Below, in pieces: positions 14,511-43,559 of a stretch of DNA of 64,000 nt; positions within the stretch are counted from its first letter, which is position 1, and each line of letters opens with the position of its first letter. The stretch is from positions 1-64,000 of the IMG/VR virus record IMGVR_UViG_3300037400_002787; one strand, written 5' to 3'. The position numbers and the translations under genes are program-made. The notes under the pieces are model-generated. The model ran no database searches. It saw only the letters and a list, made by a program, of their open reading frames with translations, and was not told the DNA's origin. The DNA is from a virus. Taxonomy: Duplodnaviria; Heunggongvirae; Uroviricota; Caudoviricetes.

Positions 14511-14641
14511 TGCCGCGCGGGAGTGTACCCCCTCCCGCCGTGGCTCTTTTTCGGAACCGAAAACAAACAACAAAAGAGAAAGGAGGATGCGCAATTCCTC
14601 CCAACCCTAAAGGGATTGGGTTCCCTTGCGCATTTTCTATG
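14230..14641 (+). mobile_element. ORF-less IscB-type IS200/605 (HEARO/omega-RNA) element, copy A
   Basis: About 88% identical to the omega-RNA region upstream of iscB at 41664. LE hairpin cccaaccctgaagggttggg (14239-14258), RE hairpin gcgcaattcctcccaaccctaaagggattgggttcccttgcgc (14589-14631). The iscB ORF is replaced by about 80 nt. Ends in tttctATG. Confidence 0.7.
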
Positions 14642-16530: not shown

Positions 16531-16809
16531 TGTCAGCGACCCAACCCTGAAGGGTTGGGCTTGTGGGTGAAAGAGACCGCGAGCCCGCGCTGACTAGGGG
16601 ACTGAAACGAAAGGTAAAACTAAAGTGACAGTAGCAGTTACAGAGGAATGCATAGGCACCTGCGGATGTGAGTCCAAGTCCGCAGCACTGTGGTGTGCGG
16701 TTAAACAGCCCTGCGAGGCAGGGGCAGTGCCGCATGCAAGAAACCCTCTGCAACGCCCCGATGGGCACCTAACCCGCCTTCGGGCGGTGACTTACCCCGC
16801 AAGGGGTCA
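16531..16809 (+). ncRNA. omega-RNA-like structured scaffold (orphan)
   Basis: Homologous to 14230-14510 and 41664-41956. Confidence 0.55.
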
Positions 16810-16940
16810 TGCCACGCGGGAGTGTACCTCCTCCCGCCGTGGCTCTTTTACGAAACCGAGAACAAACAACAAAAGAGAAAGGAGGATGCGCAATTCCTCC
16901 CAACCCTAAAGGGATTGGGTTCCCTTGCGCATTTTCTATG
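16531..16940 (+). mobile_element. ORF-less IscB-type IS200/605 (HEARO/omega-RNA) element, copy B
   Basis: About 93% identical to copy A. Same LE/RE hairpins. Ends tttctATG at 16938-16940. Confidence 0.7.
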
Positions 16941-28798: not shown

Positions 28799-29038
28799 AT
28801 GGAGTTGTTAGTTATATATGTTATTGGCATTCCGATAATGTTTGCATTTCTTGCAAAGAGGCTTGGAGAAGACACCTCCGAGGAGCACGATATGTCACGA
28901 GGAAGGATTATGATGAGCCTCCTGTGGCCTCTATTCCTTCCTATAATTATTTTTATGTGGCTGCAGACCGAATCCGAGGAGAGAAAGGAAAGAGAGCGGT
29001 CGGCAGAATGGAAGCGGCGAGCGAGAGGAGAAAATTGA
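28799..29038 (+). CDS. small membrane protein
   Basis: Two TM segments. SD aaaggagaaacaatATG. Confidence 0.45.
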   Translation: MELLVIYVIGIPIMFAFLAKRLGEDTSEEHDMSRGRIMMSLLWPLFLPIIIFMWLQTESEERKERERSAEWKRRARGEN

Positions 29039-29039
29039 T

Positions 29040-29255
29040 ATGTGGCAGAAACTATTATATGGATATGCTGTTGTAGCGATAACACTATTCGTATGTATAG
29101 TATTTCAGGGGAAGATTCTCAAGAAGGACTTGGGTAATGGAGTGAAGTTGGGATTTCTCAATTCGTTCATTCTATCATTCCTCTGGCCGATTTCAGTGAC
29201 AGTGACTTTCTTGGGTGTGGGCTATGAGGTAGTTCGTACCTGGAAGCGGCTTTAA
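29040..29255 (+). CDS. small membrane protein
   Basis: Hydrophobic 71-aa ORF, ATG overlapping the upstream stop. Confidence 0.45.
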   Translation: MWQKLLYGYAVVAITLFVCIVFQGKILKKDLGNGVKLGFLNSFILSFLWPISVTVTFLGVGYEVVRTWKRL

Positions 29256-29296
29256 TTTCAATACCAAAAAAACAACAAGGAAAGAAAGAAGAAAAA

Positions 29297-30400
29297 ATGA
29301 CTAACTGTTCGGAGTATGTTTCTACAGCTCATAGCGACAAAACGGCTGATGCCATTGCATCTCACCTGCTTGATGAGTACATCAAGCATGACCCCAAGGT
29401 GAGGTTCGCACTTGAGGTTCAGTTGAAAGACCACATCTGCAACCTTGCGGGCGAGGTCACTTCAACTTGGAAGCCATCTGACGATATTATTGCCGAACTT
29501 GTAAGGGGGGCAATCCGCAAGGTGGGCTACACGGCTGAGTATGCCGCCAAGTGGCCTGAAGGTGCAACCCTTAATGCAGACAAGGTTGTTGTAAACAACT
29601 TCATAGGGCAGCAGTCTCCAGACATTGCACAGGGTGTTGATGTTGACGGATGGGGTGATCAAGGTTGCTTCGCGGGAATGGCCACAAACGAAGAGCGGTA
29701 TAATTACCTTCCTCGCGATGTTTACTTCGCCCGTGAGATTGGCAAGCGGCTTTATCGTGCGGCAAAGGCCGGAACCGCTCCCATCGGACTCGACATCAAG
29801 ACCTTGGTTTCTACTACTAATGCACTCAATGTGGAGCAGGTCATAGTAGCGGCCCCGATGTTGCCCGAGAATGAACAGGAAGCAAGGTCTTTCATTGAGA
29901 AGACCGTGAAGGAAGTCCTTGACGAACGGCATCATATCTGCGACGAAATCATCATCAACGGCACAGGGGCTTATGTAGTCCACTCTTCCGTAGGAGATGC
30001 GGGGGTGGTAGGTAGGAAGTTGGCGGTAGACTTCTACGGGCTGAATTGTCCGATAGGTGGAGGCGCAACTTTTGGCAAGGACGGCACAAAGGCAGATGTG
30101 ACATTGAACCTATATGCTAGATATCGGTCACTCAAGACCATTCTCGCTAGGGGAGGAGTGTTCGACAAGGTGTATACGAAGATTGGGTGCTGCATAGGAA
30201 AGAGCAAGTGCCTTCTGTCACAGGAAGATCAAGACCACAAGATGTTTAACCAAGAGGCTGTTGACATCAAGCCGTCAGAGACGGCAAAGTTGTTCGGTCT
30301 TGATGGAAGTGGTCGTGATGATATGTTCTTCCACCTCTGCGAGGACGGACTGTTTTCGTTTGTGGACGAACTTGCCAAGACGGAAGTGGAGAATAACTAA
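29297..30400 (+). CDS. metK: S-adenosylmethionine synthetase (methionine adenosyltransferase)
   Basis: AHSDKTADAIAS (GHPDKxCDQISD), GQQSPDIAQGVD (GKQSPDINQGVD), GWGDQG (GAGDQG), GDAGVVGRKLAVDFYG, GGGATFGKDGTKADV (GGGAFSGKDPSKVDRS). Confidence 0.8.
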   Translation: MTNCSEYVSTAHSDKTADAIASHLLDEYIKHDPKVRFALEVQLKDHICNLAGEVTSTWKPSDDIIAELVRGAIRKVGYTAEYAAKWPEGATLNADKVVVNNFIGQQSPDIAQGVDVDGWGDQGCFAGMATNEERYNYLPRDVYFAREIGKRLYRAAKAGTAPIGLDIKTLVSTTNALNVEQVIVAAPMLPENEQEARSFIEKTVKEVLDERHHICDEIIINGTGAYVVHSSVGDAGVVGRKLAVDFYGLNCPIGGGATFGKDGTKADVTLNLYARYRSLKTILARGGVFDKVYTKIGCCIGKSKCLLSQEDQDHKMFNQEAVDIKPSETAKLFGLDGSGRDDMFFHLCEDGLFSFVDELAKTEVENN

Positions 30401-30415
30401 AAGGAGCATCAAACA

Positions 30416-30709
30416 ATGGCTACAAAAACAAAAGCAACAAAAGCGGTAAAGAAGACAACTTCTACAAAGACCGTCAAAAAGCGCGAAACAACCGCAGACC
30501 TCAAGAAAAAGATTGCCGAACTCGAGAACCGATTGAACAAGACTCTGGAAGAACACGGGAATCTTCTGTCTGCTACTGCCAACATTACCCAGAAACTGGA
30601 TGTAATGCTCGGACAGATGCTCAAGGCTCTTTTCATAGTTGGAATTGGGCCTGACGAACTTATGGCTAAGTGCCAGCAGATGTTCCGAAAGAATGTGGTT
30701 GCTGACTAA
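30416..30709 (+). CDS. hypothetical protein (Lys/Thr-rich N-terminus, coiled coil)
   Basis: SD aaaaggagcatcaaacaATG. Confidence 0.5.
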   Translation: MATKTKATKAVKKTTSTKTVKKRETTADLKKKIAELENRLNKTLEEHGNLLSATANITQKLDVMLGQMLKALFIVGIGPDELMAKCQQMFRKNVVAD

Positions 30710-30725
30710 TAGGATGTAAAGTTCT

Positions 30726-30953
30726 ATGTATTTAGTGATGGCCGGCAACATAGCGGATTCTCTTGTGCGGACAATAACACAAGCACTTCCGTATGTAGAC
30801 AAGGAAGTCCTCTTGGGTTGCATTAAAGAGGTTCTTCCTGAGCGAGGAATAATAATCGAAGCCACAAAAGAGGAACTTAGCAGCAACCCTAATTTGTGCA
30901 ATATGTTCTATAGGGAAGTTGAGGTGGTTCCTAAGGAGACTTTCAATGGCTAA
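30726..30953 (+). CDS. hypothetical small protein
   Basis: 75-aa ORF. Confidence 0.4.
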   Translation: MYLVMAGNIADSLVRTITQALPYVDKEVLLGCIKEVLPERGIIIEATKEELSSNPNLCNMFYREVEVVPKETFNG

Positions 30954-31329
30954 GTTCCTCAATCTTCCGATGAAGAAGAAGTGGTATGATATGATACTCT
31001 CCGGCGAGAAGAGACAGGAGTATCGTCTTGTCAAGCCATATTGGGAAACGAGAATCAAGAACTGGATAAAGCAGAATATCCCTGACCGTGCGAGGGACAC
31101 AACGATTATCTTGTGTGGGGATAAGGAAAGAGACACAGAGAGAAGGCTGCCAATCTGCTTTGTCAATGGATATGGGAAAGATGCGCCTCGTTTCATAGGC
31201 TACTGCTACTTCGTTGAGATAAGGAGAATTGGGCTGCAAAAAAAATGGGGCGAAGGGGAATACCATGGGATTCCACACTTTGTCTTGCATCTAGGGCATA
31301 TAGAAAAGGAAATCATCAATGGAAACTAA
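30946..31329 (+). CDS. ASCH/PUA-like domain protein
   Basis: LNLPMKKKWYDMILSGEKRQEYRLVKPYW resembles an ASCH-domain N-terminus. Confidence 0.4.
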   Translation: MAKFLNLPMKKKWYDMILSGEKRQEYRLVKPYWETRIKNWIKQNIPDRARDTTIILCGDKERDTERRLPICFVNGYGKDAPRFIGYCYFVEIRRIGLQKKWGEGEYHGIPHFVLHLGHIEKEIINGN

Positions 31330-31522
31330 TGAAGAGTGTTGTGCAAAATGCATCTACTGGAAAGAGAACCAGTATCGCGGAATGGCATCATTGAGCGAAG
31401 AACTGATAATGGGGAAGTGCCATAGGAATCCGCCCTCTACTGACGGGCATCTTTCATTCTTCCCCGAAACCAAGTCTTCTGAATGGTGTGGGGAGTGCAA
31501 GCTGTCAAAGAAAGGAAAGTAA
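31319..31522 (+). CDS. small Cys-rich protein
   Basis: CCAKC...CGEC. Confidence 0.45.
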   Translation: METNEECCAKCIYWKENQYRGMASLSEELIMGKCHRNPPSTDGHLSFFPETKSSEWCGECKLSKKGK

Positions 31523-31799
31523 TTATGGTAGCGAAAAAAAGGGTGAATACGATAAAGAAGGTGTTAGAAAAGATGCGCCAGACTGGTTCAAAAGGCTAGT
31601 TAACGAATATAGAGAACTAGTCGAAAAAAGAACCAAATTAGGGAAGTTTCTCCTAACAAAGCCTTTCCCGAAAGAGGTGAGTGATATACAAAGAACCCGC
31701 AAGATAGATGCCGAATCTTCAGTTCGGCATGTGAATTGCGGAGCGATATACAGAAAGAGCGGCAAAGGCACAATCAAGTATACAAGGCTTGAACAATAG
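31488..31799 (+). CDS. hypothetical protein (GTG start, overlaps upstream gene; start uncertain)
   Basis: 104-codon ORF with no in-frame ATG near the 5' end. Confidence 0.3.
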   Translation: MGSASCQRKESNYGSEKKGEYDKEGVRKDAPDWFKRLVNEYRELVEKRTKLGKFLLTKPFPKEVSDIQRTRKIDAESSVRHVNCGAIYRKSGKGTIKYTRLEQ

Positions 31800-33280
31800 G
31801 CAATAAGTAGATGAAGTCAGACGAGACCAGGAAGTGCGGATGTTCCGCAGAGAGGCGGCAGAAGGTAAAGGAAAGCCGCAAAGCCACCGCCATCAGGAGG
31901 CGGGGGCAGATGGGTTTCGTCTACGAGTGCAAGATAGTGGAGAGTCGGCTCAACAAGAGGCAGATGGAGGAACTTGAGCGGCTTTTCGTGGAGGGGAAGT
32001 GGTTCTACAACCATGTCTTGTCGCTCCATAGGGAAGGTGTGGGGTTGGGGGAGATTAATGCCACTGCCGTCAAGGAGGTGGGAAGGTTTGACAGGAACCA
32101 CGAGAAGAAGACAGAAAAACTTCAAGTGCTGACCGCTCAGGAGCGGCAGGGGATAATCGCCAGAATGGCCGCCAACGAGAAGACGATATCTGCCCTGGCG
32201 AAGAAGGGGTTGCAGGGAGGCGGGGAGTTGCATTTCCTGTCGGAGATGACGTGCATACCGCTGAAGCAGTACGGTGTGACATACAAGTTCAAGACGCCGA
32301 ACAAGGTGCGGATAGGGGGAATTAGCGGGAGTGTGCTGGTGCGGACTGGCGGACAGTTGGAAGGGGTGGACGAACTGGCGAATGCCAACCTCGTGCATAG
32401 GGCGGACGGCTACTTCCTCAAGGTCACGGGCTTCACAAACATAGAGAATCTAAAACAAACGGAAACGAACGGAAAGGAGATAGGGCTTGATTTTGGAATC
32501 AAGACCAGTGTGACGACATCGGAAGGCGAGAAGATTGACGTGCTAGTTGGAGAAAGCGAACGGCTCAAGCGGCTGCAGAAGGAACTATTCCGCAGGGCAA
32601 AGGGTTCGAACAACAGGTACAGGACAATCAAGAGGATTCGCCGCGAATACCAGAGACTGACGAACAGAAAAACCGACATGGCCAACAAAATTGTCTCGAA
32701 ACTGAAGAAATACAACACGATAGTGATGCAGGACGAGATGATTGTCGGGTGGCACAGGGGACTCTTCGGGAAGCAAGTCCAGCACAGTTGTCTAGGAATC
32801 CTGAAAGAAAAACTCATAAGGCTTCCGCAGACGATAGTGCTCGCCCGTGGAATCCCCACGACCAAGATGTGCCCCGTGTGCAAGACCGTGAACAGGTACG
32901 TCACCCTTGCGGACAGGACGTACAGGTGCGGTTGCGGCTACACCCAAGACCGCGACCTCCATGCCGCAAGGAACATGCTCGTCGTCAAGAATATGGTCTT
33001 TGGAAACAATTTGGAAAAACTACCGCTGGGACGGCGGAAAGTCACGCTCACAGAGTTCCGCACCTCTATCGGAGATGTAACAGTCTCCGACAAGCCGGAA
33101 CGCAGAAGTGGGAAGATGCCATGTCTTTAGCATGGCATAGAGTTCACAGCGGATTCTTCTAGAGAAGCAACTTATTGCAATGGATAAATATGCAACTATT
33201 CTTTTCGCTCGCATAAACCTTGCGGTTGGCGAATATTCTAAAAATAGAGACAAGAATCCATTAATGAGGAGTTCACTATG
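31800..33280 (+). mobile_element. IS200/605-family TnpB-only element 1 (boundaries approximate)
   Basis: Contains the tnpB gene. The 3' flank 33131-33277 is non-coding and would carry the omega/reRNA and RE. Confidence 0.5.
31910..33130 (+). CDS. tnpB: TnpB (OMEGA RNA-guided RuvC-like nuclease)
   Basis: RuvC-I IGLDFGIKT, RuvC-II region VMQDEMIV. C-terminal Zn finger plus RuvC-III CPVCKTVNRY...CGCGYTQDRDLHAARNM. Confidence 0.8.
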   Translation: MGFVYECKIVESRLNKRQMEELERLFVEGKWFYNHVLSLHREGVGLGEINATAVKEVGRFDRNHEKKTEKLQVLTAQERQGIIARMAANEKTISALAKKGLQGGGELHFLSEMTCIPLKQYGVTYKFKTPNKVRIGGISGSVLVRTGGQLEGVDELANANLVHRADGYFLKVTGFTNIENLKQTETNGKEIGLDFGIKTSVTTSEGEKIDVLVGESERLKRLQKELFRRAKGSNNRYRTIKRIRREYQRLTNRKTDMANKIVSKLKKYNTIVMQDEMIVGWHRGLFGKQVQHSCLGILKEKLIRLPQTIVLARGIPTTKMCPVCKTVNRYVTLADRTYRCGCGYTQDRDLHAARNMLVVKNMVFGNNLEKLPLGRRKVTLTEFRTSIGDVTVSDKPERRSGKMPCL

Positions 33281-33784
33281 ACAACATCAGAACTTATCAA
33301 ACGTGTAGAGCAAAGACTTAACAAGACGGGCAACCCTTCGCTCCCGCCAGAAGAAACTCTAAGGGCTATACTTGAACTCGGCAAAGAGCGAGATGCTGCC
33401 CTCAACGAGAAGCTCTCTATTCAGGACGAGATAGCCCAGCAGACCACAAAGATAGATGCTCTTGTCTCGCAGAAGGAGGAAGCGGAATTCCAGGCTAGAC
33501 AGGCTAAGGATGAAGCCAAGGAGCAGATGTGGATAGCCCACGAACTCGGCAACTTCATAAGGGATGTAGCCAATAGCATCTATGTTGGAAAAGAGGTTTC
33601 GGCAGCCAATAGGGTTTATGACCTCAACAAGGGGTCGCTTAGGAAGAAGCGGCTCAATGCCTACAACTTCAATTCTCTTCAGGAGGCGAAAGATGCCTTT
33701 GCGGAGTATTGTAGAGAAACGGGTGTCCCCATCAACGAGATAAATATGCTTTCGTGGCTATTCAGCTATGCCACAAGGCCGTAG
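33278..33784 (+). CDS. hypothetical coiled-coil protein
   Basis: SD aatgaggagttcactATG. Confidence 0.5.
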   Translation: MTTSELIKRVEQRLNKTGNPSLPPEETLRAILELGKERDAALNEKLSIQDEIAQQTTKIDALVSQKEEAEFQARQAKDEAKEQMWIAHELGNFIRDVANSIYVGKEVSAANRVYDLNKGSLRKKRLNAYNFNSLQEAKDAFAEYCRETGVPINEINMLSWLFSYATRP

Positions 33785-33887
33785 GTAGTGGTTAAAGGGT
33801 AGAGAAAGACCGCCGATTATATGCTAAGGCACATGTAAGGAGACGATACTGTGCTTCCAAAGGAAGAGACCATCATATTGGGCGGCA

Positions 33888-34463
33888 ATGCCAAAAAGCA
33901 GGCATAAAATAATAAGTAGAGCGGTAGCGGAAGCTGCCGCAAAGAAGAGGGCGGATGTAGTTGTTACACCGTCCTCTCCTACTCCATACATACCAAAACC
34001 GAAGACAAGAGTAGATGAGATTTACGACCTTATAGAGGAAGCAAGCAATCTGTGGTTTACGGACAAGGACGGAAGACCTTGGATTAACAGAGAGGATATA
34101 GAGGACAAAGGCGGAGGAATTTATGTAGTAAGGTTTAGATGTCCATTGGCTGTCCTTTACACTAGGGTGTCTCTAAATAGAGTTGTAGACAAGGTGTGTG
34201 AAACTCTAAAATCTGAAAAGCGGTATTTCTGCAAAGAAAGCGAGGTTGTCTATTTCAACTCAATCCATCAAAGGTTCTATGAGTGTGTATGGGTGATATG
34301 CGAAGGAGAAGTATCAGAAAAAGATGAAGAAGTAGACTGGGAGGACAATAACTGTGAGTCCTGCATAGACACTCAGGAGGAGATAGATGGCGAACTCACG
34401 GACGAGTCAACAGCCGAAGAGGTCGACTGCCGAATAGATGAAAGTTTGGAAAATTTCGTCTAG
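33888..34463 (+). CDS. hypothetical protein with acidic C-terminus
   Basis: 191-aa ORF. Confidence 0.5.
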   Translation: MPKSRHKIISRAVAEAAAKKRADVVVTPSSPTPYIPKPKTRVDEIYDLIEEASNLWFTDKDGRPWINREDIEDKGGGIYVVRFRCPLAVLYTRVSLNRVVDKVCETLKSEKRYFCKESEVVYFNSIHQRFYECVWVICEGEVSEKDEEVDWEDNNCESCIDTQEEIDGELTDESTAEEVDCRIDESLENFV

Positions 34464-34468
34464 CCCCC

Positions 34469-34498
34469 TTTACAACTGACCATAAGAAATGATATAAT
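34469..34498 (+). promoter_or_regulatory. sigma70-type phage promoter
   Basis: cccccTTTACAactgacca, N, TGATATAAT. Confidence 0.7.
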
Positions 34499-34535
34499 AT
34501 CAACAACTTCAAAGAACAAAAAGGACAAGACGAAA

Positions 34536-35771
34536 ATGAAACTCAATCCGATAATCAATAGCCTACTTGAAACCGACCAGTACAAGTTTTCGATGGGGCA
34601 GACTATCTACCACCAGTTCAACAAGGATGTGACTACCTGGGCTTTCAAGTGTCGTAACAAGAATGTTGTATTCACACCCGAGATGGTGCAGGAGATTCGG
34701 GAGCAGATTGCTCATTTCTGCACCCTTAGGTTCAAGGAGGAAGAACTGGAATGGATGAAGAATACAATTCCTTGGCTTAGCGGTGACTACATTTCGCATC
34801 TCCGTAGGTGGTATCCTAGGCGGGAGCAGATTTTTGTAGACGATGGAGAGATTACACGGAATTGTGAGCCGTGCGGTATGAGAATTACCGCTACAGGAGA
34901 ATGGCTCGACACTTCCATGTACGAGATACCTATTCTCGCTATTGTAAATGAGGTGTATTTCGCTTTCAAGTATGGTGCAGGAGCCCTAAATCGTGCTGCA
35001 CAGGATAGGTTTGAGAAGAAACTGTCCATGATGAAGAATGGATACTATGCCATTGGATGCTTCTCGGAGTTTGGTATGAGGAGAAGGTATTCCGCCCAGA
35101 TGCAGGATTGGATTGTGGGTAGCCTAGCACACTTCGGTACATCTTTCAACACCTTTGTCGGTACTTCCAATGTCTACCTTGCGAAAAAGCACGGAGTCAA
35201 GCCTGTGGGGACGATGGCACATGAGTTTATCCAAGTTGTGGGACAGGCTCACCACGAGCACAATCCCGCCTACTCCAATCACTATATGATGAAGGCTTGG
35301 GTCAAGGAATACGAGACTGATAATGGCATTGCACTCACGGACACCATTACGACAGACTGCTTCCTTCGGGACTTCAACAAGACCTATGCCACACTTTTTA
35401 GCGGTGTGAGGCACGATTCCAACGACCCGTTTGTGTGGGGCGAGAAAATGATTGCTCACTACAAGAAACTTGGCATCGACCCAATGACCAAGACACTCTT
35501 GTTCTCGGATAGCCTTGACTTTAACAAGGCAACACAGATTCGTAATTATTTTAGCGGCAAGGCAAGAGTTGCATTCGGCATCGGGACATACATTGCGAAC
35601 GACACAGGCAAGGAGCCGCTTAATATAGTGATGAAGGTGATAGAAGCGAATGGCTCACCGGTTGCAAAACTTTCCGATATTGATGGCAAGGGTATGTGCC
35701 GTGATATTGCTTATGTAGACTACCTCCGCCGCACAATCGACTGGCGTCTCGCACACGAGAAGGAGGTGTAA
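34536..35771 (+). CDS. pncB: nicotinate phosphoribosyltransferase
   Basis: LLETDQYKFSMGQ (LLDTDAYKLHMQQ), VGTMAHEFIQ, GIALTDTITTDCFLRDF, GVRHDSNDPFVWGEKMIAHYKKLGIDP, NIVMKVIEANGSPVAKLSD. Near colinear with E. coli PncB. Confidence 0.9.
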   Translation: MKLNPIINSLLETDQYKFSMGQTIYHQFNKDVTTWAFKCRNKNVVFTPEMVQEIREQIAHFCTLRFKEEELEWMKNTIPWLSGDYISHLRRWYPRREQIFVDDGEITRNCEPCGMRITATGEWLDTSMYEIPILAIVNEVYFAFKYGAGALNRAAQDRFEKKLSMMKNGYYAIGCFSEFGMRRRYSAQMQDWIVGSLAHFGTSFNTFVGTSNVYLAKKHGVKPVGTMAHEFIQVVGQAHHEHNPAYSNHYMMKAWVKEYETDNGIALTDTITTDCFLRDFNKTYATLFSGVRHDSNDPFVWGEKMIAHYKKLGIDPMTKTLLFSDSLDFNKATQIRNYFSGKARVAFGIGTYIANDTGKEPLNIVMKVIEANGSPVAKLSDIDGKGMCRDIAYVDYLRRTIDWRLAHEKEV

Positions 35772-35825
35772 TAATCTGTTACATAAGTCATAGTCATGGA
35801 TAGTAAATAATCCACAAATTGCCTA

Positions 35826-35853
35826 TTGCATCTTCCACAAAGATATGATACAA
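35826..35853 (+). promoter_or_regulatory. possible promoter for tnpB-2
   Basis: TTGCAT, N16, TGATACAAT. ATG 8 nt downstream. Confidence 0.35.
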
Positions 35854-35861
35854 TACAACCA

Positions 35862-37115
35862 ATGTTGAGAGGAATCCCGATACGTGTGTACCCGAACGAT
35901 GAGCAGAGAGCCTACATAAGTAGGCTCTTGGGCTGTTGTCGTTATGTGTACAACCATCTGCTTGCATTCCAGGAGAAGTTGTTCCTTGAAGAGAAGAGGG
36001 GTGCGAAGCAGTCGGAGATTACAGAATTCTACAATGAAGAGAAAACTCAGAACCAGTTTCTTCGCGAAGTCCACAGCAAAGTGCTTCAACAGTCCCGAAT
36101 AGACTTGCAGACGGCATGGGGAAACTACTTCAAGAGCCTAAAGAAGTCTAGCGGCAAGAAAGCGAACAAACCGATCTACCATAAGAAGGGCATCAAGGAA
36201 TCTTGTAGATTTCCCGTAGATGCTTTCATCGGCATCAGGGGCAACCGAATATCCATCATCAAGCCGTTGCGGGACATGCATTTCAAGTGCAGCAGACGGG
36301 ACGAGCGGTACTTGAACAAACACCAAGACGAAGTGAAGAGCATAACCCTGCGGAAGACGGGCGGTGGTAGGTATTACTGCTCCGTGCTAATAGATGACCG
36401 CCGCATACGGCCGTTGCCAAAGGAAGAGAAAGATGTAGGCATAGACCTAGGTGTGAAGGATTCTGCAATAACATCAGATGGGGACAAGTTCGAGAATCCC
36501 AAGGCATTGGCAAAGGTGGAGAAGCAGATAAAGAGGTGGGAGAGAATCAAGTCCCGTCGAGAGAGGGGAAGCAATAGGCGGAGAATGGCGGTAGCGAGAG
36601 TGTCCCGTCTGCACGAAAGGGCTTCCAACATACGAAAGGATTTCCAGCACAAGGCGACGACCCGAATAGTCCGCGAAAACCAAGCGGTCTATGTCGAAGA
36701 CCTCAATGTGGCTGGTATGATGAAGAACCACAAACTGGCAAAGGCGGTGGCAGATTCCTCTATGAGTGGATTAGTCCGAATGCTGGAGTACAAGTGCAAG
36801 TGGTACGGACGGGAACTGGTGAAGGTTGACAGATGGTATGCCAGCAGCCAGACCTGTTCGTGCTGCGGGTACAAGAACTCCGAGGTGAAGAACCTCAAAG
36901 TCAGGGAGTGGGTATGTCCCAAGTGCGGTAAGCATCACGACCGCGATGTGAATGCGGCTGTGAATGTGCTACATGAGGGGCGGAGAATCAGAGAGAATAA
37001 GGTAGGGCTGAGTTCGCCCGAACCTAACGCTCGTGGACAGGGCAACGGGGGAGTTTCCATGCCGCAAGGTGCGGAGACAGCCGTTCTGGACGAAGCGAGA
37101 AAGGAATGTGCCTAA
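35862..37115 (+). CDS. tnpB: TnpB (OMEGA RNA-guided RuvC-like nuclease)
   Basis: N-terminus [15 protein letters not shown], Ruv[12 protein letters not shown], Ruv[17 protein letters not shown]. Zn finger CSCCGY...CPKCG, Ruv[15 protein letters not shown]. Confidence 0.85.
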
Positions 37116-37289
37116 TGTCTATCAATGACTATAGAACACGGAACTATCAGTTTCTACTGCAAGAAGACAAAGATGGAAAAGTACGAAGATGTGGAACTGA
37201 GGATACTTGGCAAAGGCGAGAAGGACGGACAACCCTTCTACTTCGAAACGGCGCAGACCAGCCTCTGAACCACAAGAAGGAGGTCTAAC

Positions 37290-37844
37290 ATGGGAGAGTG
37301 TACTGATTTCTTTGCACAGAAGAGAAGCCTTCTTGCGAAGCCTGGTGAGGAAGGACAACATGCTTTTTGGGAACATGATATTGGGTTCCTTAATAAGGCA
37401 TTCTGGTTTGATAGATTAATGTGGGATATGCCATCTTCATTGGAAGCCTCTGGAAAGGATAGAAAACTTATCAGGAGCGGCTTACATTCTGATTGTGAAT
37501 CACCACTGACAGTAGATTTCTTGAAGTATGTTATCACGAAACTCCAAGAGATGGACAAGAAGGTTCTCGGGATGCCCTGCGACCCGAAGACCGACCATGC
37601 AAGTTATGAGTTTAATCATAATTGCGATATGGTTTTCAACGGAACTACGAATGGAATAGCCATGATGTCCGCAGTGGCAGAGGTGCTTGGTACCCGATGC
37701 GACATAGATTTCACATACCCTTGGGAAGAAAATCAAGATGAAATAGGGTCGGTTGGAATTCAGCGTATGTTGCAGAGCGTTATTGATAGATACAATGAAT
37801 TGAACAAGGATGGGGATTGGATTTTGTATAAGACTACTGGTTGA
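37290..37844 (+). CDS. hypothetical protein
   Basis: SD aagaaggaggtctaacATG. AT-richer codon usage than neighbours. Confidence 0.5.
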   Translation: MGECTDFFAQKRSLLAKPGEEGQHAFWEHDIGFLNKAFWFDRLMWDMPSSLEASGKDRKLIRSGLHSDCESPLTVDFLKYVITKLQEMDKKVLGMPCDPKTDHASYEFNHNCDMVFNGTTNGIAMMSAVAEVLGTRCDIDFTYPWEENQDEIGSVGIQRMLQSVIDRYNELNKDGDWILYKTTG

Positions 37845-37877
37845 TTGTAAAAATGAGAAAACCGAAGGAAGTCTGAG

Positions 37878-38033
37878 ATGTTAGTGTCAGAACTAATTAG
37901 AAAGTTGGTGAACATTAATCGCCCCGATTCAGAAGTCATTATCGACTCTCGTTCTTGCGGCTATGATTTCGACGAAGTAACGGATGTCAAATCTATGGAT
38001 GTTGTGACCATTTATGGGGAGAAGGAGAATTGA
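37878..38033 (+). CDS. possible small protein (51 aa)
   Basis: SD gaaggaagtctgagATG. Stop couples to the next start (TGATATG). Confidence 0.3.
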   Translation: MLVSELIRKLVNINRPDSEVIIDSRSCGYDFDEVTDVKSMDVVTIYGEKEN

Positions 38034-38034
38034 T

Positions 38035-38571
38035 ATGTTTGTTGGGGGAATTACCAGAGAGTCTCTTGCAAAAGAGGCAAGACGGAAAAAAATGCTAGAG
38101 GAAATAGCACCGGCAAAAGACACACGCCCTTCTTGGAATACCTATTTTCTAAAGCTCGCAAAGGATGTCTCCGAGCGTAGCAACTGCTGCCGCCGCAAGG
38201 TTGGAGCGGTTATCGTCAAGGACAACCACATCATTGCTACGGGTTACAATGGTACACCCGCAGGAACCACCAACTGTTTCGACGGCGGCTGTCCTAGGTG
38301 CAACCACACCCACACAACAGGAGAGAAACTTGATGAGTGTCTTTGTGTTCATGCCGAGCAGAATGCGATATGCCAGGCGGCAAAGCACGGCAATGCCGTT
38401 GACGGAGGGCATATCTACATAACCTGCTCTCCTTGTCTTACCTGCTTGAAGTTGATAATCAATGCTGGCATCAAGAGAGTTGTTTTCAGCGAGTGGTACA
38501 AGCCTTTTAATGAGCAGGAACTAAACCTCATACAAGAAGCGAAACTTGAATATATGGAGTGCGTGAGATGA
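38035..38571 (+). CDS. dCMP deaminase (CDA-fold zinc deaminase)
   Basis: CVHAEQNAI (HAE) and PCLTCLKLIINAGIKRV (PCxxC) zinc-binding motifs. Confidence 0.8.
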   Translation: MFVGGITRESLAKEARRKKMLEEIAPAKDTRPSWNTYFLKLAKDVSERSNCCRRKVGAVIVKDNHIIATGYNGTPAGTTNCFDGGCPRCNHTHTTGEKLDECLCVHAEQNAICQAAKHGNAVDGGHIYITCSPCLTCLKLIINAGIKRVVFSEWYKPFNEQELNLIQEAKLEYMECVR

Positions 38572-39263
38572 CCAATAGACCTGGAATTATGGGGAGTATA
38601 ACTCCCCGCATGGGGATATTCGGAGGAACTTTTTCTCCTTTCACTGTTGCCCATAGAGCGATTGTCAAAGCATTTATAGGCACCTATCGTCTGGATGAAC
38701 TATATATAATTCCTACAATTGTTAATTATCATCGTGAGGGAAAAAACGACTTGCTTCTAGAAACGGACAAGGTGGAAATCATAGAGAGGATGTTAGACAC
38801 ACTCTCGCCGTTCTATCAGAGACGCATTTTTATAGACAAGAGCGAGTTTGCCTATAGAGACCTGTGCCTTGGTATGTCAGACGAGGCTTGGACCACACTT
38901 GTGGACGGACGAAGGTTTATTCATACTCTTCTAGACTTCAATGTGAGACATGGGATAGATAAAGATGTTTCCCGTCCTTATGTCTGTATTGGGACGGACT
39001 CCTTTGAGCATCTTGACCAATGGTATATGAACACGGAGATTGTGAAAATATGCAATCTTGTTGTTGTTCAGGGAAGGAACGATGTGTTTGTTTCCAGACC
39101 CAAAATCCCGCATACCGAATTTAGAATAGCCTATGACTACGAGAAGGTGTCGGCAAGCAAGATACGGGATAAGATGCGATGCCGCAACTGGAGTCACTAC
39201 ATAGCGGATGTCAAGAGACTAGACGAGGGGAAGACAACCCTTGCGGAATTAGGATGGATTTAA
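38568..39263 (+). CDS. nadD: nicotinate/nicotinamide mononucleotide adenylyltransferase (NadD/NMNAT family)
   Basis: GIFGGTFSPFTVAH (FGGTFDPVHYGH), CIGTDSFEHLDQW (IIGqDSL..F..W), VSASKIRDKM (ISAT.IRe.l). ATGA overlap with the upstream gene. Confidence 0.7.
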   Translation: MTNRPGIMGSITPRMGIFGGTFSPFTVAHRAIVKAFIGTYRLDELYIIPTIVNYHREGKNDLLLETDKVEIIERMLDTLSPFYQRRIFIDKSEFAYRDLCLGMSDEAWTTLVDGRRFIHTLLDFNVRHGIDKDVSRPYVCIGTDSFEHLDQWYMNTEIVKICNLVVVQGRNDVFVSRPKIPHTEFRIAYDYEKVSASKIRDKMRCRNWSHYIADVKRLDEGKTTLAELGWI

Positions 39264-39283
39264 CTCACCAAAAAAAACACAAT

Positions 39284-39751
39284 ATGAAATACATAAACCT
39301 CCGAATCAGCCCCAACAACAATAATGTTGAAGTTACCCGCGCCTGTTCGCACGGCGACTGCGACCAGATATTGAAGGGCGACGAGAACTACTGCCCGAAG
39401 TGCGGAAGCCCGTTGAAGAAACTCCCAGACCATCTCGACAAGGAGGCGATTATCGCCCTCGTCAACGAGAACATCGACAAACTGCCGAAGCCGCCAACGG
39501 CGGAATCTAAGGCAAACCTCGACGACCATTGTTCAACCACGGGCGGTATAGACGGACACGATGGGTGGACTGTGACCAACAAAGGAAAAGAGACTACGGA
39601 ATGTCCCTACGGCAAGGGTACTCCCGAAATATGCGGGTTCTGCACAAGCAAAGGCGCTTGCACCATAGGGGTTCTAACCTCGATGCCCCCGCAGTACGAT
39701 ATGTGTCCGTTTCGCGGGTCGGGATTCATTCGCTGCTCGGAAGCCGATTGA
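39284..39751 (+). CDS. Cys-rich zinc-ribbon protein
   Basis: Multiple CxxC pairs (CPKCG, CGFC). Confidence 0.45.
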   Translation: MKYINLRISPNNNNVEVTRACSHGDCDQILKGDENYCPKCGSPLKKLPDHLDKEAIIALVNENIDKLPKPPTAESKANLDDHCSTTGGIDGHDGWTVTNKGKETTECPYGKGTPEICGFCTSKGACTIGVLTSMPPQYDMCPFRGSGFIRCSEAD

Positions 39752-39777
39752 CAAAAACTCCAAAAAGGAACTTAGAA

Positions 39778-41016
39778 ATGGAATCCTACAAATTTAACCC
39801 TGAGCAAGCATTCAACACAATCTCCGACCACTGGAAGAAGTGGGCTACGGCACACGGCATGGAGCAGTGGGTGGTCGGCATCTCCGGCGGAGTTGACAGT
39901 TCCGTGACGGCAGCTCTCGCCGCCAAGATATTTGGCTACGACAATGTACTCGGAGTCCTTATGCCGAATGGAGAGCAGAAAGACATTGAGGACGCCAAGG
40001 ACATTTGCCGACACCTCAAAATAGAGTGGTGTACCGTCAACATCGGGAGGACTTATGAGGAACTTCTTGATGAGGTTGTGTTTGGTGCATTGAGGGCATA
40101 TGGCATCGAGAGGGCTTCTACCGACACCATCACGAATATGCCGGCGAGGTTGAGGATGACTGCCCTGTATGCTATCGCACAATCCACTGCCAGGATGGTT
40201 CTCAACACCTGCAACCTATCTGAGTCCACGGTGGGCTACGATACGCTTTGGGGCGACGATGCCGGTTCCTATGCCCCTATTCAGGGTCTTACAAAGACCG
40301 AGGTGATTGCCCTCGGCGACTGGCTCGGTCTCCCGCACAACTTCACCCACAAGACTCCGATAGATGGCTTGCAGCCCAAGACAGATGAGGAGAAACTCGG
40401 CTTCACCTATGCCGACCTCGACCGCTATATCCGAGAGGACATCGGCACTCCAGAACTCAAGGCGAAGGTCGATGACCTCTATCGCCGCAACAAGTTCAAG
40501 ACCGATATGATTCATATCGACGGACCGAACTTCTATGCACTCGCCAACTTCGTCCGATACAACAACCTGCCCGATGCAGAGAAAACAGTCAAGCAAGCAT
40601 TTGCGGATAATCTCGACATTGTAAGGCTTGAGCCAGAACCACGATACCCGGAGGATGCATGGATCAACGGGGAGAGAGACGACAACGACAATCCGAAGAT
40701 GCCGTTCATGGTTGCCGATGAAAAGGCACAGAACGGCTGGGTGTGGAAACTAGATGTCAACATCAAGACGGGCGAAGTCATCGGATGGCCGAAGGATGTC
40801 AAGGCAGAGGTTCATTACAAGGTTTGCGACTGCTGCCGCATCAAGTATAATGGAGAAGAATACTACGAATATGTACCCGACTTTCTTGAAATAGATGACG
40901 AGGGATATGGAGACTACATTATACTAACAATTGATGATGGCAAAATAGTCAACTGGAGCGAGTCCGACTGCCGTAAGTTCATCAATGATGTTCTCTTCAA
41001 AGACGAGGGAAAGTAA
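39778..41016 (+). CDS. nadE: NH3-dependent NAD+ synthetase with about 140-aa C-terminal extension
   Basis: PP-loop VVGISGGVDSS. GNxxARLRM-like block (PARLRMTALY), ESTVGYDTLWGDDAGSYAPI ([26 protein letters not shown]). Confidence 0.85.
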   Translation: MESYKFNPEQAFNTISDHWKKWATAHGMEQWVVGISGGVDSSVTAALAAKIFGYDNVLGVLMPNGEQKDIEDAKDICRHLKIEWCTVNIGRTYEELLDEVVFGALRAYGIERASTDTITNMPARLRMTALYAIAQSTARMVLNTCNLSESTVGYDTLWGDDAGSYAPIQGLTKTEVIALGDWLGLPHNFTHKTPIDGLQPKTDEEKLGFTYADLDRYIREDIGTPELKAKVDDLYRRNKFKTDMIHIDGPNFYALANFVRYNNLPDAEKTVKQAFADNLDIVRLEPEPRYPEDAWINGERDDNDNPKMPFMVADEKAQNGWVWKLDVNIKTGEVIGWPKDVKAEVHYKVCDCCRIKYNGEEYYEYVPDFLEIDDEGYGDYIILTIDDGKIVNWSESDCRKFINDVLFKDEGK

Positions 41017-41019
41017 GAT

Positions 41020-41388
41020 ATGAGCAATATGCTAGAACAGGTAAAAAGTAGGATAGCAGAGCATCGTTTGGCGGCTGACGACCTAAAGAAGATGTCATTG
41101 CAAAGTGACACTGCTAAAATGTTTAGGGATGCTTTTGTTGAAGAAGAGATGGCAATGGCAGATAAGTTGCAGTCTAAGTTGGAAAAGATTGAGGAAAGTG
41201 AAAGTCCGCAGGGGGTAATCTCTGGCGATAGGAACTGCGATAGATTCAATAGTGGGGATTTGAAAGCTGATTTCAATGCGGCGATTAAGTTTTATATGGA
41301 AGAGACAGGGAAGGTTGTGTACAATGCTTCACCCGGATATAATTCGTCTGGGGATTTCATAATTTGGCTTCTGTCTAGGCAACGTTAG
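41020..41388 (+). CDS. hypothetical protein
   Basis: 122-aa ORF. Confidence 0.5.
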   Translation: MSNMLEQVKSRIAEHRLAADDLKKMSLQSDTAKMFRDAFVEEEMAMADKLQSKLEKIEESESPQGVISGDRNCDRFNSGDLKADFNAAIKFYMEETGKVVYNASPGYNSSGDFIIWLLSRQR

Positions 41389-41392
41389 TAAA

Positions 41393-41683
41393 ATGAGATT
41401 AACAGAACTTACCCCCATATTCGTAGACCAAATCCCCGAAGAACTCGAGGATGGGAAAATATATGTCTGCCGTAAATACAAGACGGCAACACATCTCTGC
41501 GCCTGTGGATGTGGTAAAAAAGTTGTCACACCTTTCAAGGAAGGTTTTTGGACATTGACTACTAATGACATAGATAGCAAGGTGACGATGAGACCGTCTA
41601 TCGGGAACTTTGATATTCCGTGCAAGTCGCACTATTTCCTCACAGACAACAAGGTGGAATGGGTGTCAGTGGTCCGACCCTGA
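41393..41683 (+). CDS. hypothetical zinc-ribbon protein; 3' end and stop lie inside the IscB element left end
   Basis: CACGCGKK motif. Stop codon TGA falls within the LE hairpin ccgaccctgaagggttggg. Confidence 0.45.
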   Translation: MRLTELTPIFVDQIPEELEDGKIYVCRKYKTATHLCACGCGKKVVTPFKEGFWTLTTNDIDSKVTMRPSIGNFDIPCKSHYFLTDNKVEWVSVVRP

Positions 41684-41956
41684 AGGGTTGGGCTTGTAAG
41701 GGGAACCGAACAAGCCTGCGCTGACTAGGGGACTAGAAAGGAAACAGAGAAACAGAAATGATAGTAGCAGTTCAAGAGGAATGCATAGGCACCCGTGGAT
41801 GTTTGTCCAAGTCTGCGGCACTGCGGTGTGTGGTTAAACAAGCCTGCGAGGTAGGGCTAGTGCCACACACGATAAACCCTCTTGAACGCCCCGATGGGCA
41901 CCTAACCTCCCCGCAAGGGGAGTGACTTACCCTGAACAAGGGTCAAACCAAAAGCG
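41664..41956 (+). ncRNA. omega-RNA (HEARO-type) scaffold of IscB
   Basis: Non-coding GC-rich paired region directly upstream of iscB. Conserved in two orphan copies. Confidence 0.6.
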
Positions 41957-43222: not shown

Positions 43223-43250
43223 AGGGATTGGGTTTCCTCGCGCAGTTTCT

Positions 43251-43559
43251 ATGAAGGCGAAGAATCACAAGTCAGCATCTAAGGTCATAGCGGAACTTTG
43301 CGGCGACCCTTCGATAGAGAAGGAAGTCAAGTCAAGACTAAGGGCAAAGAGAAGTAAGCCTAAGAAAACCCGCATCATCATAGAACACGGCGACGAGCGG
43401 TACGAAGTAAAGTTCAACCGTGACTGTATGCGGACATGTTCTTTTGTTAAGCACACGCCATATGGTCCGTGCGAAAACTGTTGTTCTCTGCCAAGATGGT
43501 TTGAGAAAATCGTCCAGAAGTTTCCTGAATCACATCTGAAAAGGATAGACAAGGAATAA
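43251..43559 (+). CDS. hypothetical protein; start codon at the terminus of the IscB element
   Basis: ATG 43251 lies within the terminal tttctATG shared by all three elements. Confidence 0.45.
   Translation: MKAKNHKSASKVIAELCGDPSIEKEVKSRLRAKRSKPKKTRIIIEHGDERYEVKFNRDCMRTCSFVKHTPYGPCENCCSLPRWFEKIVQKFPESHLKRIDKE

Follow-up and report, generated by a model that had tools for sequence, protein, structure and literature searches.

The window analysed here, a 64-kb stretch of phage DNA, contains two tnpB genes, both on the plus strand. tnpB-1 (31811-33130) encodes 439 aa with matches to the Pfam families OrfB_IS605 and Cas12f1-like_TNB, and tnpB-2 (35862-37115) encodes 417 aa with matches to HTH_OrfB_IS605, OrfB_IS605 and TNB. 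The initial annotation had tnpB-2 at these coordinates and started tnpB-1 at 31910; the upstream ATG at 31811 is supported as the start by homologs that span residues 1-439. Its distinction between the two proteins holds: they share ~28% identity over 181 aa, and the zinc-finger spacing read from the sequences is CxxC-x15-CxC in TnpB-1 and CxxC-x16-CxxC in TnpB-2. It had also described both elements as lacking tnpA, and none lies inside either of them. Only ~120 nt (TnpB-1) and ~95 nt (TnpB-2) separate the left end from tnpB, and a tblastn search of the 64-kb window gave no match to either of two queries, an IS607-type serine-recombinase TnpA and a 61-aa Y1 TnpA fragment.

The neighbouring genes are as previously described: pncB (34536-35771, plus strand), which encodes nicotinate phosphoribosyltransferase (Pfam NAPRTase_N and NAPRTase), dCMP deaminase, nadD and nadE. 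An IscB element and two further guide-RNA elements had been reported as well; three HEARO RNAs and one IscB gene were detected in the window.

The TnpB-1 element and the gene it interrupts

The TnpB-1 element (31690-33147, plus strand, 1458 bp) is a non-autonomous IS200/IS605 (IS608-like) transposon. Its ends were defined, as had been suggested, by comparison with phages without the insertion: homology to the sister phage L111 is lost at 31690 and picks up again at 33146. A 94.6% identical copy in an unrelated context (L110; covering 31684-33147) occupies another TATAC site and has the same ATATAC flank. The ATAC target/TAM (31686-31689, plus strand) lies directly 5' of the left end within the 5-mer TATAC, and the family consensus, TWTAC, fits 7 of 8 left-end flanks, the exception being ATTAC in L086. 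A subterminal hairpin (31707-31730, plus strand; GATGCCGAA-TCTTCAG-TTCGGCAT) stands in the left end at a distance of 17 nt from the cleavage site, and compensatory stem changes preserve it in L084, L086, L087, L113 and L132. The right end is at 33147, 17 nt past the stop codon. Conservation stops there in five homologous loci (L082-L086) and in L110, and the degraded L087 copy retains only the terminal AGTTCAC at this end.

These features resemble those of IS608 (ISHp608), an IS200/IS605 element with a TTAC-type target. Near-identical imperfect hairpins stand at both ends, cleavage on the left falls after (T/A)TAC, 17-18 nt upstream of the hairpin, and on the right the element ends 9 nt downstream of its hairpin. 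Insertion 3' of ATAC was precise and without target duplication (empty sites in L111, L112 and L136), tnpB is on the 3' side, and a Y1 TnpA remnant persists within the homologous element of L084. Unlike IS608, the window copy has no tnpA, its lineage is nearly restricted to viral contigs (22 IMG/VR stretches vs 1 match in a 185,579-species genome collection), and the RuvC-II motif of TnpB-1 reads Q-D-E, with the usual E absent from that position. TnpB-1 also has a 33-aa N-terminal extension and no match to HTH_OrfB_IS605 in the Pfam search.

The element is inserted into, and has split, a small conserved crAss001_48-like phage gene. The 5' part (31488-31689, plus strand) lies in orf103 and matches positions 1-39 of the 61-position profile PF21825; orf103 as called (31488-31799) extends into the left end of the element. 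The 3' part (33148-33281, plus strand) begins at the right end. Excision in silico gives a 111-aa ORF whose PF21825 match is full-length, at 61.1 bits (profile 1-60 of 61) compared to 30.6 bits (profile 1-39) before. The restored ORF terminates in an ATGA overlap with orf168, and uninterrupted homologs of 99 aa (P0241-P0246) are 79-87% identical. The initial annotation had placed reRNA and the element's right end in 150-nt non-coding 3' flanks of both tnpB genes. The right ends are instead much closer to the genes, at only 17 nt (TnpB-1) and 32 nt (TnpB-2) from the stop codons. The flanks are phage sequence, and the one after TnpB-1 is coding, as it belongs to the 3' part of the split phage gene.

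Each element is predicted to encode a structured RNA scaffold that lies partly within the 3' end of tnpB and extends as far as the right end. For TnpB-1, the candidate omegaRNA (reRNA) scaffold (33023-33147, plus strand) terminates in AGAGTTCAC and includes the right-end hairpin (33115-33138), with the TAG stop in the hairpin loop. Compensatory changes are found in 16 of its 39 predicted pairs, compared to 5.9 +/- 1.9 in shuffles; 0 of 500 shuffles reached 16, and slid controls gave 1-4. The predicted guide (33148-33167, plus strand; AGCGGATTCTTCTAGAGAAG) is directly 3' of the right end and doubles as the first 20 nt of the split gene's 3' part. In the sister phages L111 and L112, the empty site consists of TATAC and, after it, a stretch of at least 26 nt that matches the predicted guide region exactly, including 20/20 nt of the guide, while the empty site of L136 has 2 mismatches in the 20-nt guide. 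A natural predicted homing target for TnpB-1 therefore exists in L111 and L112.

The TnpB-2 element and its junction with pncB

The TnpB-2 element (~35766-37147, plus strand) is a tnpA-less IS607-type transposon. Its right end, ...ACACGGAACTAT, is sharp at 37147, 32 nt past the stop codon, and common to 8 loci. The left end starts within 35766-35776 and belongs to a block common to L098, L099 and L103. The last codon and stop of pncB lie at or within this junction. The gene ends in GAGGCATAATATG in native L111, GAGGTGTGATATG in native L136 and GAGGTGTAATAATCTG in the window, and the left terminus of the element is similar to the native pncB stop region. Since the left boundary is ambiguous within ~10 nt, the TAM of TnpB-2 is ambiguous too, and no clean empty site was found in the relatives compared. 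The TTAC at 35778-35781 (plus strand), regarded in the initial annotation as the canonical IS605 target preceding TnpB-2, is present; it lies within the conserved left end but, as a target, is not conserved: the matching positions read TCAT (L098), TCAC (L103) and TTTC (L099).

Attribution of TnpB-2 to IS605 had to be revised on account of its close relatives. In L100, L108 and L109, tnpB adjoins a tnpA of the resolvase family whose product has an HTH at its N terminus, and a remnant of this tnpA is found in L107. The copies adjoining a serine-recombinase tnpA are 82-88% identical to TnpB-2 at the protein level. The TnpB-2 element is derived, by loss of tnpA, from an IS607-type transposon (serine-recombinase tnpA plus tnpB) and is situated at the extreme end of pncB.

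The protein aligns over its full length with ISDra2 TnpB, the reference RNA-guided TnpB (PDB 8bf8/8exa/8h1j; E 2.9e-70 for 8bf8/8exa), with 39% identity in the family alignment. Equivalents of D191, E278 and D361 are conserved as a canonical RuvC D-E-D triad, as is the CxxC...CxxC zinc finger. Also as in ISDra2, the predicted omegaRNA scaffold (37001-37147, plus strand) overlaps the 3' end of the ORF and stops at the right end. In contrast to ISDra2, the close relatives pair with a serine recombinase (IS607-type) rather than a Y1 enzyme, and TnpB-2 has neither hairpin ends nor TTGAT. IS607-family TnpB (ISFba1, PMC11061315) is similar in that relatives of TnpB-2 have serine-recombinase tnpA directly upstream of tnpB, and the left flank in the window, AGGAG(G), is the published TAM of most IS607 TnpBs. 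Several features differ from that family. The reRNA of ISFba1 is derived from RAGATH-18, whereas neither 3' region in the window matched any Rfam family, RAGATH-18 included, even at E<=1. The right end is ...AACTAT and not GG, other copies are flanked differently, without AGGAG, and the protein is nearer to ISDra2 (E 3e-70) than to PDB 8iaz (E 4e-39).

The nucleotides of the TnpB-2 scaffold are near-invariant across 8 loci, and 5 of its 40 predicted pairs show compensatory changes. The predicted guide (37148-37167, plus strand; CAGTTTCTACTGCAAGAAGA) is the first variable sequence past the right end in all copies and is unique in the window. Outside the transposon, a variable cassette (37173-38033, plus strand) extends toward dCMP deaminase and contains a possible 31-aa ORF (37173-37268), orf184 (37290-37844) and orf51 (37878-38033), with no match in Pfam or PHROG. 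It is missing in L001, L101, L111 and L136, which have either nothing there or orf81/orf145 and Tpt1-like genes.

Catalytic residues and selection

Mutated RuvC residues had been named as a sign of inactivity. The TnpB-2 triad is canonical; in TnpB-1, an invariant Q-D-E stands at the place expected for the glutamate. D227, Q307-D308-E309, C354/C357/C373/C375 and D382 are the putative residues of the TnpB-1 active site and zinc finger. Column conservation in 121 members of the family shows no variation at D227, E309, D382 or any of the four cysteines. Q307 is invariant in TnpB-1 and aligns to the RuvC-II glutamate position in a profile-profile alignment to an ISDra2-like profile, so the putative nuclease activity would depend on E309, which is close by and likewise invariant. 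Domesticated TnpBs encoded by phages (TldR) are known (PMC10705468), and with this precedent, Q307 could be taken to mean that the proteins are nuclease-dead, TldR-like transcription factors that use guide RNA to regulate phage or host genes. This is very improbable given the full triad of TnpB-2, the full length and invariant residues of TnpB-1, the transposon ends and flank-derived guides kept in both elements, and the spread of copies over many unrelated loci.

Both TnpB proteins are under purifying selection. The dN/dS is 0.235 for TnpB-1 (vs the L110 copy) and 0.08-0.13 for TnpB-2, or 0.08-0.24 overall, and it is low even between two tnpA-less copies of TnpB-2 (window vs L099). These values, the two intact ORFs, the invariant catalytic Asp and cysteines and the RNA structure preserved by compensatory changes all speak against the elements being stranded, decaying insertion-sequence remnants, passive and functionless hitchhikers awaiting deletion. 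The tnpA-less TnpB-2 architecture is also seen in no fewer than four distinct phage contexts. Decay would fit the absence of tnpA, the broken phage gene, the Q at the canonical Glu position and the L087 homolog of TnpB-1, which is a pseudogene, but we consider it unlikely. Judged from their sequences, both nucleases look functional.

Turnover among relatives and proposed RNA-guided homing

Four relatives (L001, L101, L111 and L136) have neither element at the window sites, in contrast to the ancient fixed cargo that identical sites in all relatives would have suggested. Two other TnpBs are present in L111 at sites that are unoccupied in the window, a TnpB-2-like gene lies at another place in L101, and L136 and L001 have no TnpB. 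Because relatives have no such insertions, or other TnpBs elsewhere, rapid turnover of TnpB elements among them is indicated. One lineage has at least 7 copies within one 83-kb viral contig. Insertion sites that vary with every relative, a disrupted phage gene and a multi-copy lineage are hallmarks of selfish proliferation.

The initial annotation had favoured use of the nucleases by the phage, for example in homing or inter-phage competition. On such a reading they would be domesticated weapons, for inter-phage competition or host takeover, and selection would favour the phage's benefit and not the element's. The density of such elements in the 64 kb (2 TnpB, 1 IscB and 2 miniature HEARO elements), their shared orientation with the phage genes, the near restriction of the TnpB-1 lineage to viruses and the predicted cleavability of sister phages at the TnpB-1 site are consistent with this idea. 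We nevertheless regard it as improbable. The guides are native flanks and not retargeted to host or foreign sequence, no other guide matches occur within the window, and the transposon ends are intact. Neither a conserved position nor linkage to a phage function is seen among the relatives compared, and one insertion broke a conserved gene. An effect on inter-phage competition, if any, would be a by-product. The elements look like selfish homing elements rather than phage tools because the site predicted as the TnpB-1 guide-RNA target is present, exact and uninterrupted, in a sister phage.

The window probably holds two independent non-autonomous OMEGA transposons, further members of already known element kinds, that recently entered the phage lineage and are capable of RNA-guided homing. 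If they work as ISDra2, IS605 elements of Geobacillus stearothermophilus and ISFba1 do, transcription reading through the right end would copy a 16-20-nt guide from the right flank. TnpB-omegaRNA would then cut copies of the locus without the element, recognized by TAM and right flank: TATAC+AGCGGATTCTTCTAGA... for TnpB-1, and the reconstructed pncB-side joint for TnpB-2. Recombinational repair from occupied genomes would copy the element in, resulting in homing or retention among replicating or co-infecting phage genomes, with co-infection by L111-type phages assumed. Movement to new sites would require a Y1 or serine TnpA in trans, from another phage element or the host.

There is precedent for TnpB acting in RNA-guided homing and retention, also where spread among plasmids does not depend on TnpA (PMC10055086; PMC11870625; review PMC13565253). 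The plasmid IS605 gene drive, or 'transposon non-restorative homing' (PMC11870625; PMC13565253), likewise operates without its own transposase and with a nuclease programmed against the empty allele on a co-resident homologous replicon, a role that L111 or L112 would serve here; the plasmid version is demonstrated, whereas the phage version is proposed. T-even phage homing endonucleases (Seg, Mob and I-TevI, free-standing or intron-encoded) share the predicted outcome, in which the element-free allele of a co-infecting relative is cut and the element is copied with flanking markers. They differ in recognizing the target by protein instead of guide RNA and TAM, and the TnpB element, for its part, is a transposon bounded by ends of its own. 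As with the T-even enzymes, other selfish elements occur in the same genomic neighbourhood: the SAM synthetase of L101 and L136 contains an intein with a LAGLIDADG domain.

The two TnpB genes and their nucleases

The genes of the window are phage-like, and the array lies almost wholly on the plus strand. Within it, the region studied holds two non-autonomous transposons of different superfamilies, which have precise ends and conserved, predicted structured 3' RNAs and are polymorphic among sibling phages. Both belong to known kinds, one to the IS200/IS605 and the other to the IS607 OMEGA transposons. Phage TnpB transposons are mostly annotated as "transposase" and passed over. The first gene, tnpB-1 (31811-33130, plus strand, 439 aa), matches Pfam OrfB_IS605 (E 1.6e-11) and Cas12f1-like_TNB (E 3.6e-9), and the second, tnpB-2 (35862-37115, plus strand, 417 aa), matches HTH_OrfB_IS605, OrfB_IS605 and TNB (E 1e-13 to 1.9e-27). 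Their products are about 28% identical over 181 aa, and the zinc-finger spacing read from the sequences is CxxC-x15-CxC in TnpB-1 and CxxC-x16-CxxC in TnpB-2. Both elements have a GC content slightly above that of the neighbouring DNA. The initial annotation had called two distinct TnpB genes without tnpA, in the neighbourhood of pncB and a dCMP deaminase-nadD-nadE block. These observations held up, with pncB at 34536-35771, dCMP deaminase at 38014-38571, nadD at 38559-39263 and nadE at 39529-41016. Its account of the flanks and of a TTAC target did not, and its interpretation found support in part. Megablast of 29000-41500 against GenBank phages gave no match.

Mutated RuvC residues had been named there as the mark of an inactive TnpB. 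In a residue-by-residue alignment to ISDra2 TnpB (8bf8, E 2.9e-70), TnpB-2 keeps the equivalents of D191, E278 and D361, giving a full and canonical RuvC D-E-D triad, along with a CxxC...CxxC zinc finger. For TnpB-1, profile-profile alignment places Q307 in the canonical glutamate column, with E309 two residues further along. Among 121 TnpB-1 relatives, Q307, E309, D227, D382 and the four cysteines are invariant, and position 308 is D (117) or N (4). The catalytic acid of TnpB-1 is probably E309. The presence of Q307 had suggested a nuclease-dead TnpB-1; with E309 invariant and position 308 always D or N in these relatives, this was set aside as the main reading. Both nuclease genes are under purifying selection, with a dN/dS of 0.235 for TnpB-1 against the copy in contig L110 and of 0.08-0.13 for TnpB-2 against three copies, the tnpA-less one in L099 among them.

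The TnpB-1 insertion and its empty site in sister phages

TnpB-1 homologues (55-70% aa identity) from IMG/VR loci were aligned to the window. At the right end, nucleotide conservation stops at ...GATGCCATGTCTTTAGCATGGCATAGAGTTCAC, window position 33147, 17 nt past the stop codon. Hairpins lie at both ends (31707-31730 on the left and 33115-33138 on the right) without terminal inverted repeats, as in IS200/IS605 elements. The two loops are similar, and substitutions in the stems compensate each other, in L084, L087, L113 and L132 for the left hairpin and across loci for the right one, whose loop contains the TAG stop of tnpB-1. The motif (T/A)TAC stands 17-18 nt ahead of the left-end hairpin, which is the same geometry as in IS608. 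A TWTAC consensus matches 7 of 8 left-end flanks of the family; the flank in L086 is ATTAC. A 94.6% identical copy in L110 (matching window 31684-33147) has an unrelated context and is also found behind ATATAC.

In L084, a C-terminal Y1 TnpA fragment sits between the left end and tnpB of a homologous element. In the window only about 120 nt separate the left end from tnpB-1, and tblastn of the window with this 61-aa fragment gave no match. Judged from its sequence, the TnpB-1 copy is a non-autonomous IS200/IS605 member, because its own Y1 (HUH) TnpA is absent.

Two other loci of the family were noted. At L132:11127-11191, TTTAC and a spacer of 18 nt make up a 5' flank of the left-end type, and the hairpin that follows has the right-end-like tail GCATAGAGCTCAC; this may be a minimal or hybrid end. 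At L087:6109-7095, on a 418-kb viral contig, a TnpB-1 homologue is broken by stop codons and is a pseudogene, with its left-end hairpin still visible.

The left end of TnpB-1 falls within the called orf103 (31488-31799). When 31488-31689 is joined to 33148-33281, the result is a 111-aa ORF whose stop codon shares an ATGA with the start codon of the following gene. Against Pfam PF21825 (crAss001_48-related), the restored protein scores 61.1 bits with an E of 9.6e-17 and aligns to positions 1-60 of the 61-position profile; the interrupted ORF scores 30.6 bits and aligns to positions 1-39. Uninterrupted 99-aa homologues (79-87% identity) are present on contigs L111 and L112, sister phages that share 83-94% nucleotide identity with the window across common genes. 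In this comparison with relatives lacking the insertion, as had been advised, their homology to the window breaks exactly at 31690 and picks up again at 33146, around the element (31690-33147). The insertion is a clean 1458 bp after ATAC with no target-site duplication, as judged against the empty sites in L111, L112 and L136, a more distant relative. Since excision restores the ORF and the sisters have an empty site, the 3' flank is the 3' part of a phage gene, rather than the 150-nt non-coding flank that the initial annotation had described.

A natural target allele for TnpB-1 exists in the sister phages. Their empty site reads GTGAGTGATATAC/AGCGGATTCTTCTAGAGAAGCAACTT (the slash marks the insertion point), in which the TAM (transposon-adjacent motif) is followed by 26 nt identical to the sequence 3' of the window's right end. 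The first 16-20 nt past that end are the predicted guide, and the RNP would be expected to target TWTAC followed by AGCGGATTCTTCTAGA. At the same site L136 has CATAC and two mismatches within the first 20 nt of the guide region, at positions 12 and 20. An exact-pattern scan of IMG/VR for the TAM plus guide found nothing.

TnpB-2, the IS607 lineage and the guide-RNA scaffolds

Close homologues of TnpB-2 (77-89% aa identity) are many and lie on phage-like contigs. In L100 (82% aa identity), L108 and L109 (both 88%), tnpB is abutted, with a stop/start overlap, by a 190-aa gene whose product combines an HTH at the N-terminus with a Resolvase catalytic domain (PF00239, E 5.8e-14); in L107 only a C-terminal remnant of this resolvase-type tnpA is left. 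The window, L098, L099 and L103 share a tnpA-less form with a common left end of about 95 nt, and tblastn of the window with the serine-recombinase TnpA of L108 gave no match. Since tnpA abuts tnpB in L100, L108 and L109 and is absent here, the TnpB-2 element of the window is a tnpA-deleted derivative of an IS607-type lineage. A serine-recombinase tnpA set against tnpB is the IS607 arrangement, and the earlier assignment of TnpB-2 to IS605 was dropped.

The right end of TnpB-2 is sharp: 8 of 8 loci are near-invariant up to ...ACACGGAACTAT, which ends at window 37147, 32 nt beyond the stop codon, and they differ from there on. The ends carry an inverted motif, ATAGTCAT on the left and ATGACTAT on the right, and no hairpins. 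On the left, the boundary lies between 35766 and 35776. Conservation among independent copies begins at G-TATAATAAT, with GG or G ahead, and the crossover point cannot be fixed more closely because the native pncB ends of L111 (GAGGCATAATATG) and L136 (GAGGTGTGATATG) look like the left terminus. A left end after GAGG, with the stop codon supplied by the element, was considered and dropped, as L136 natively has GAGGTGTGA and the GTG is maybe native. Wherever the boundary falls, PncB is kept intact up to its last one or two codons. The TTAC at 35778-35781 is not the target that the initial annotation took it for, because it lies inside the left end and is TCAT, TCAC or TTTC in other copies.

IS607 elements have a terminal GG and insert within a GG dinucleotide or behind one (review PMC13565253). 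Of 7 TnpB-2 copies, all have G ahead of the left end and 4, that of the window among them, have GG; the right end finishes in ...AACTAT instead of GG. IS607 TnpBs are reported to have the TAM 5'-AGGAG, which serves most of them, or GAGGG, and a RAGATH-18-derived reRNA (PMC11061315). The flank of the window's element is AGGAG(G) if the left end is at 35766 or 35767, and the flanks of other copies differ. A RAGATH-18 reRNA was rejected, since the 3' region of neither TnpB element matched any Rfam family, RAGATH-18 included, at the gathering threshold or at E≤1.

No clean empty site for TnpB-2 was found among the relatives examined, and the DNA downstream of pncB differs in each. Between pncB and dCMP deaminase lies a variable cassette. 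It holds a possible 31-aa ORF, orf184 and orf51 in the window (37148-38013), and other ORFs with a Tpt1/KptA-like RNA 2'-phosphotransferase (PF01885) in L111 (14335-15200) and L136 (11957-13365). In two further relatives, pncB is joined straight to dCMP deaminase (L101) or to nadD (L001). The TnpB-2 right end was not found by an exact-pattern scan of IMG/VR or in a genome collection of 185,579 prokaryotic species. Among TnpB-2 relatives, the left ends that lack tnpA contain TTGACT-17-TATAAT; a promoter and terminator scan did not exceed shuffled background (10 vs 7.5 ± 3.2, and 3 vs 6.3).

For TnpB-1, RNAalifold on five diverged copies gave a predicted scaffold of 39 pairs (about 33023-33145), with 94.8% of cells paired and changes on both sides in 16 pairs. 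Shuffles gave 5.9 ± 1.9 (0 of 500 reached 16) and slid registers gave 1-4. The TnpB-2 scaffold has 40 predicted pairs (37001-37139), five with compensatory changes, in a stretch whose sequence is more conserved than the remaining ORF. Both elements show the OMEGA pattern of a conserved 3' structure with covariation and a sharp conservation break, at 33147 and 37147. A structured omegaRNA/reRNA with a flank-derived guide is therefore predicted at the 3' end of each tnpB.

This covariation and the purifying selection on the genes disfavour the view that the elements are dead remnants. A TldR-like role is also disfavoured. TldR-type TnpBs have lost their RuvC residues and transposon ends and aim their guide at a host promoter, whereas here the catalytic Asp/Glu are kept, the ends are intact and the guides are the local flank. 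An IStron carries a group I intron on the 5' side of an IS605/IS607 element, which permits splicing out of the host mRNA. This was excluded, as no group I intron was found in 31500-37500 (Rfam, E≤1) and the 5' regions span only about 95-120 nt.

Turnover of the elements among related phages

The window's TnpB-1 and TnpB-2 insertions occur in none of the relatives compared, which speaks against ancient cargo fixed at identical sites. L111 carries two other TnpBs (392 and 390 aa; L111:7631-8809 and L111:10917-12089) that are 23-35% identical to TnpB-1 and TnpB-2 and 42% to each other, at sites that are empty in the window (30727/30732 and 33818/33859). Two sibling phages thus have four different TnpBs at four sites within about 10 kb, a comparison that shows the speed of TnpB element turnover. 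In L101 a gene resembling that of TnpB-2 (77%) lies upstream of pncB, and L136 and L001 have no TnpB. The right-end pattern of the TnpB-1 family was found in 22 IMG/VR stretches, with 28 distinct combinations of right end and flank and every flank different, and in only one contig of the 185,579 prokaryotic species genomes. An 83-kb viral contig (IMGVR_UViG_3300013383_000027; L117, L121, L123, L132, L133) holds at least seven such right ends and a 185-kb one (IMGVR_UViG_3300045988_186425; L114, L115, L118, L131) at least four, all with different flanks. The TnpB-1 family is proliferating within phage genomes.

From the density of such loci, the initial annotation had proposed that the phage itself uses these nucleases. 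Domestication is not favoured: each guide is the native flank, both elements keep their ends, insertion sites are variable and a gene is disrupted by one of the insertions. We tentatively propose, as a reading somewhat short of probable, that largely phage-restricted, TnpA-less TnpB and miniature IscB/HEARO transposons spread among co-infecting siblings as RNA-guided gene drives, cutting the empty alleles of their relatives. By analogy with ISDra2, the Geobacillus stearothermophilus IS605 element, ISFba1 and a plasmid gene drive (PMC8612924, PMC10055086, PMC11061315, PMC11870625), the TnpB RNP would cut the empty allele. Recombination would then copy the element into the cut allele, so that it would be retained and would home, independently of TnpA, between phage genomes that replicate together. 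Insertion at new sites, as in L110 compared to the window, would require TnpA in trans. TnpA-independent homing has been shown for plasmids (PMC11870625); for phages it is so far a proposal.

Spread by gene drive would account for the reciprocal, non-overlapping insertions in the window, L111, L101 and L136, and would make the elements super-Mendelian parasites and de facto weapons between close phages. For RNA-guided homing between viruses, the locus supplies a fully specified pair of natural alleles to test, a transposase-less IS605 element inside a gene of one phage and, in a sister about 88-94% identical in the flanks, the intact gene with an exact TAM and guide match. The more distant relative has two guide mismatches, and the locus would render the phage-homing proposal directly testable. 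The corrected anatomy is also what guide or editor design from both compact nucleases needs.

Rfam finds three HEARO (IscB omegaRNA) copies in the window, the third of them followed by an ORF for an IscB that carries RRXRR and HNH domains. The other two HEARO RNAs, the "orphan" ones (14230-14641 and 16531-16940), are miniature versions of the IscB element (41664-43253) from which iscB has been deleted. They consist of about 277 nt of omegaRNA (with 85% and 79% identity to 41664-41942), a short spacer of about 60 nt and then about 76 nt like the 3' end of the IscB element (86% to 43174-43253). All three copies end in GCGCA(T/G)TTTCTATG, and the full-length IscB (41957-43222) could presumably serve the miniature ones in trans. 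A 3' end of about 78 bp from this element also occurs at L110:1021-1098, 91-93% identical to 14564-14641, 16863-16940 and 43189-43256. This contig, unrelated to the window, also holds the near-identical TnpB-1 copy, and both families of elements appear to circulate within one phage community.

The SAM synthetase of the window (29297-30400, 367 aa) is intein-free, and those of L101 (1409-3604) and L136 (3852-6044) are about 730 aa with a LAGLIDADG-domain intein, a further homing element in this neighbourhood whose presence is polymorphic. The NAD synthase (39529-41016, 495 aa) has counterparts at L001:13751-14587 and L001:14603-15241, where its C-terminal region is a separate 212-aa ORF, either by gene fusion or by a split.
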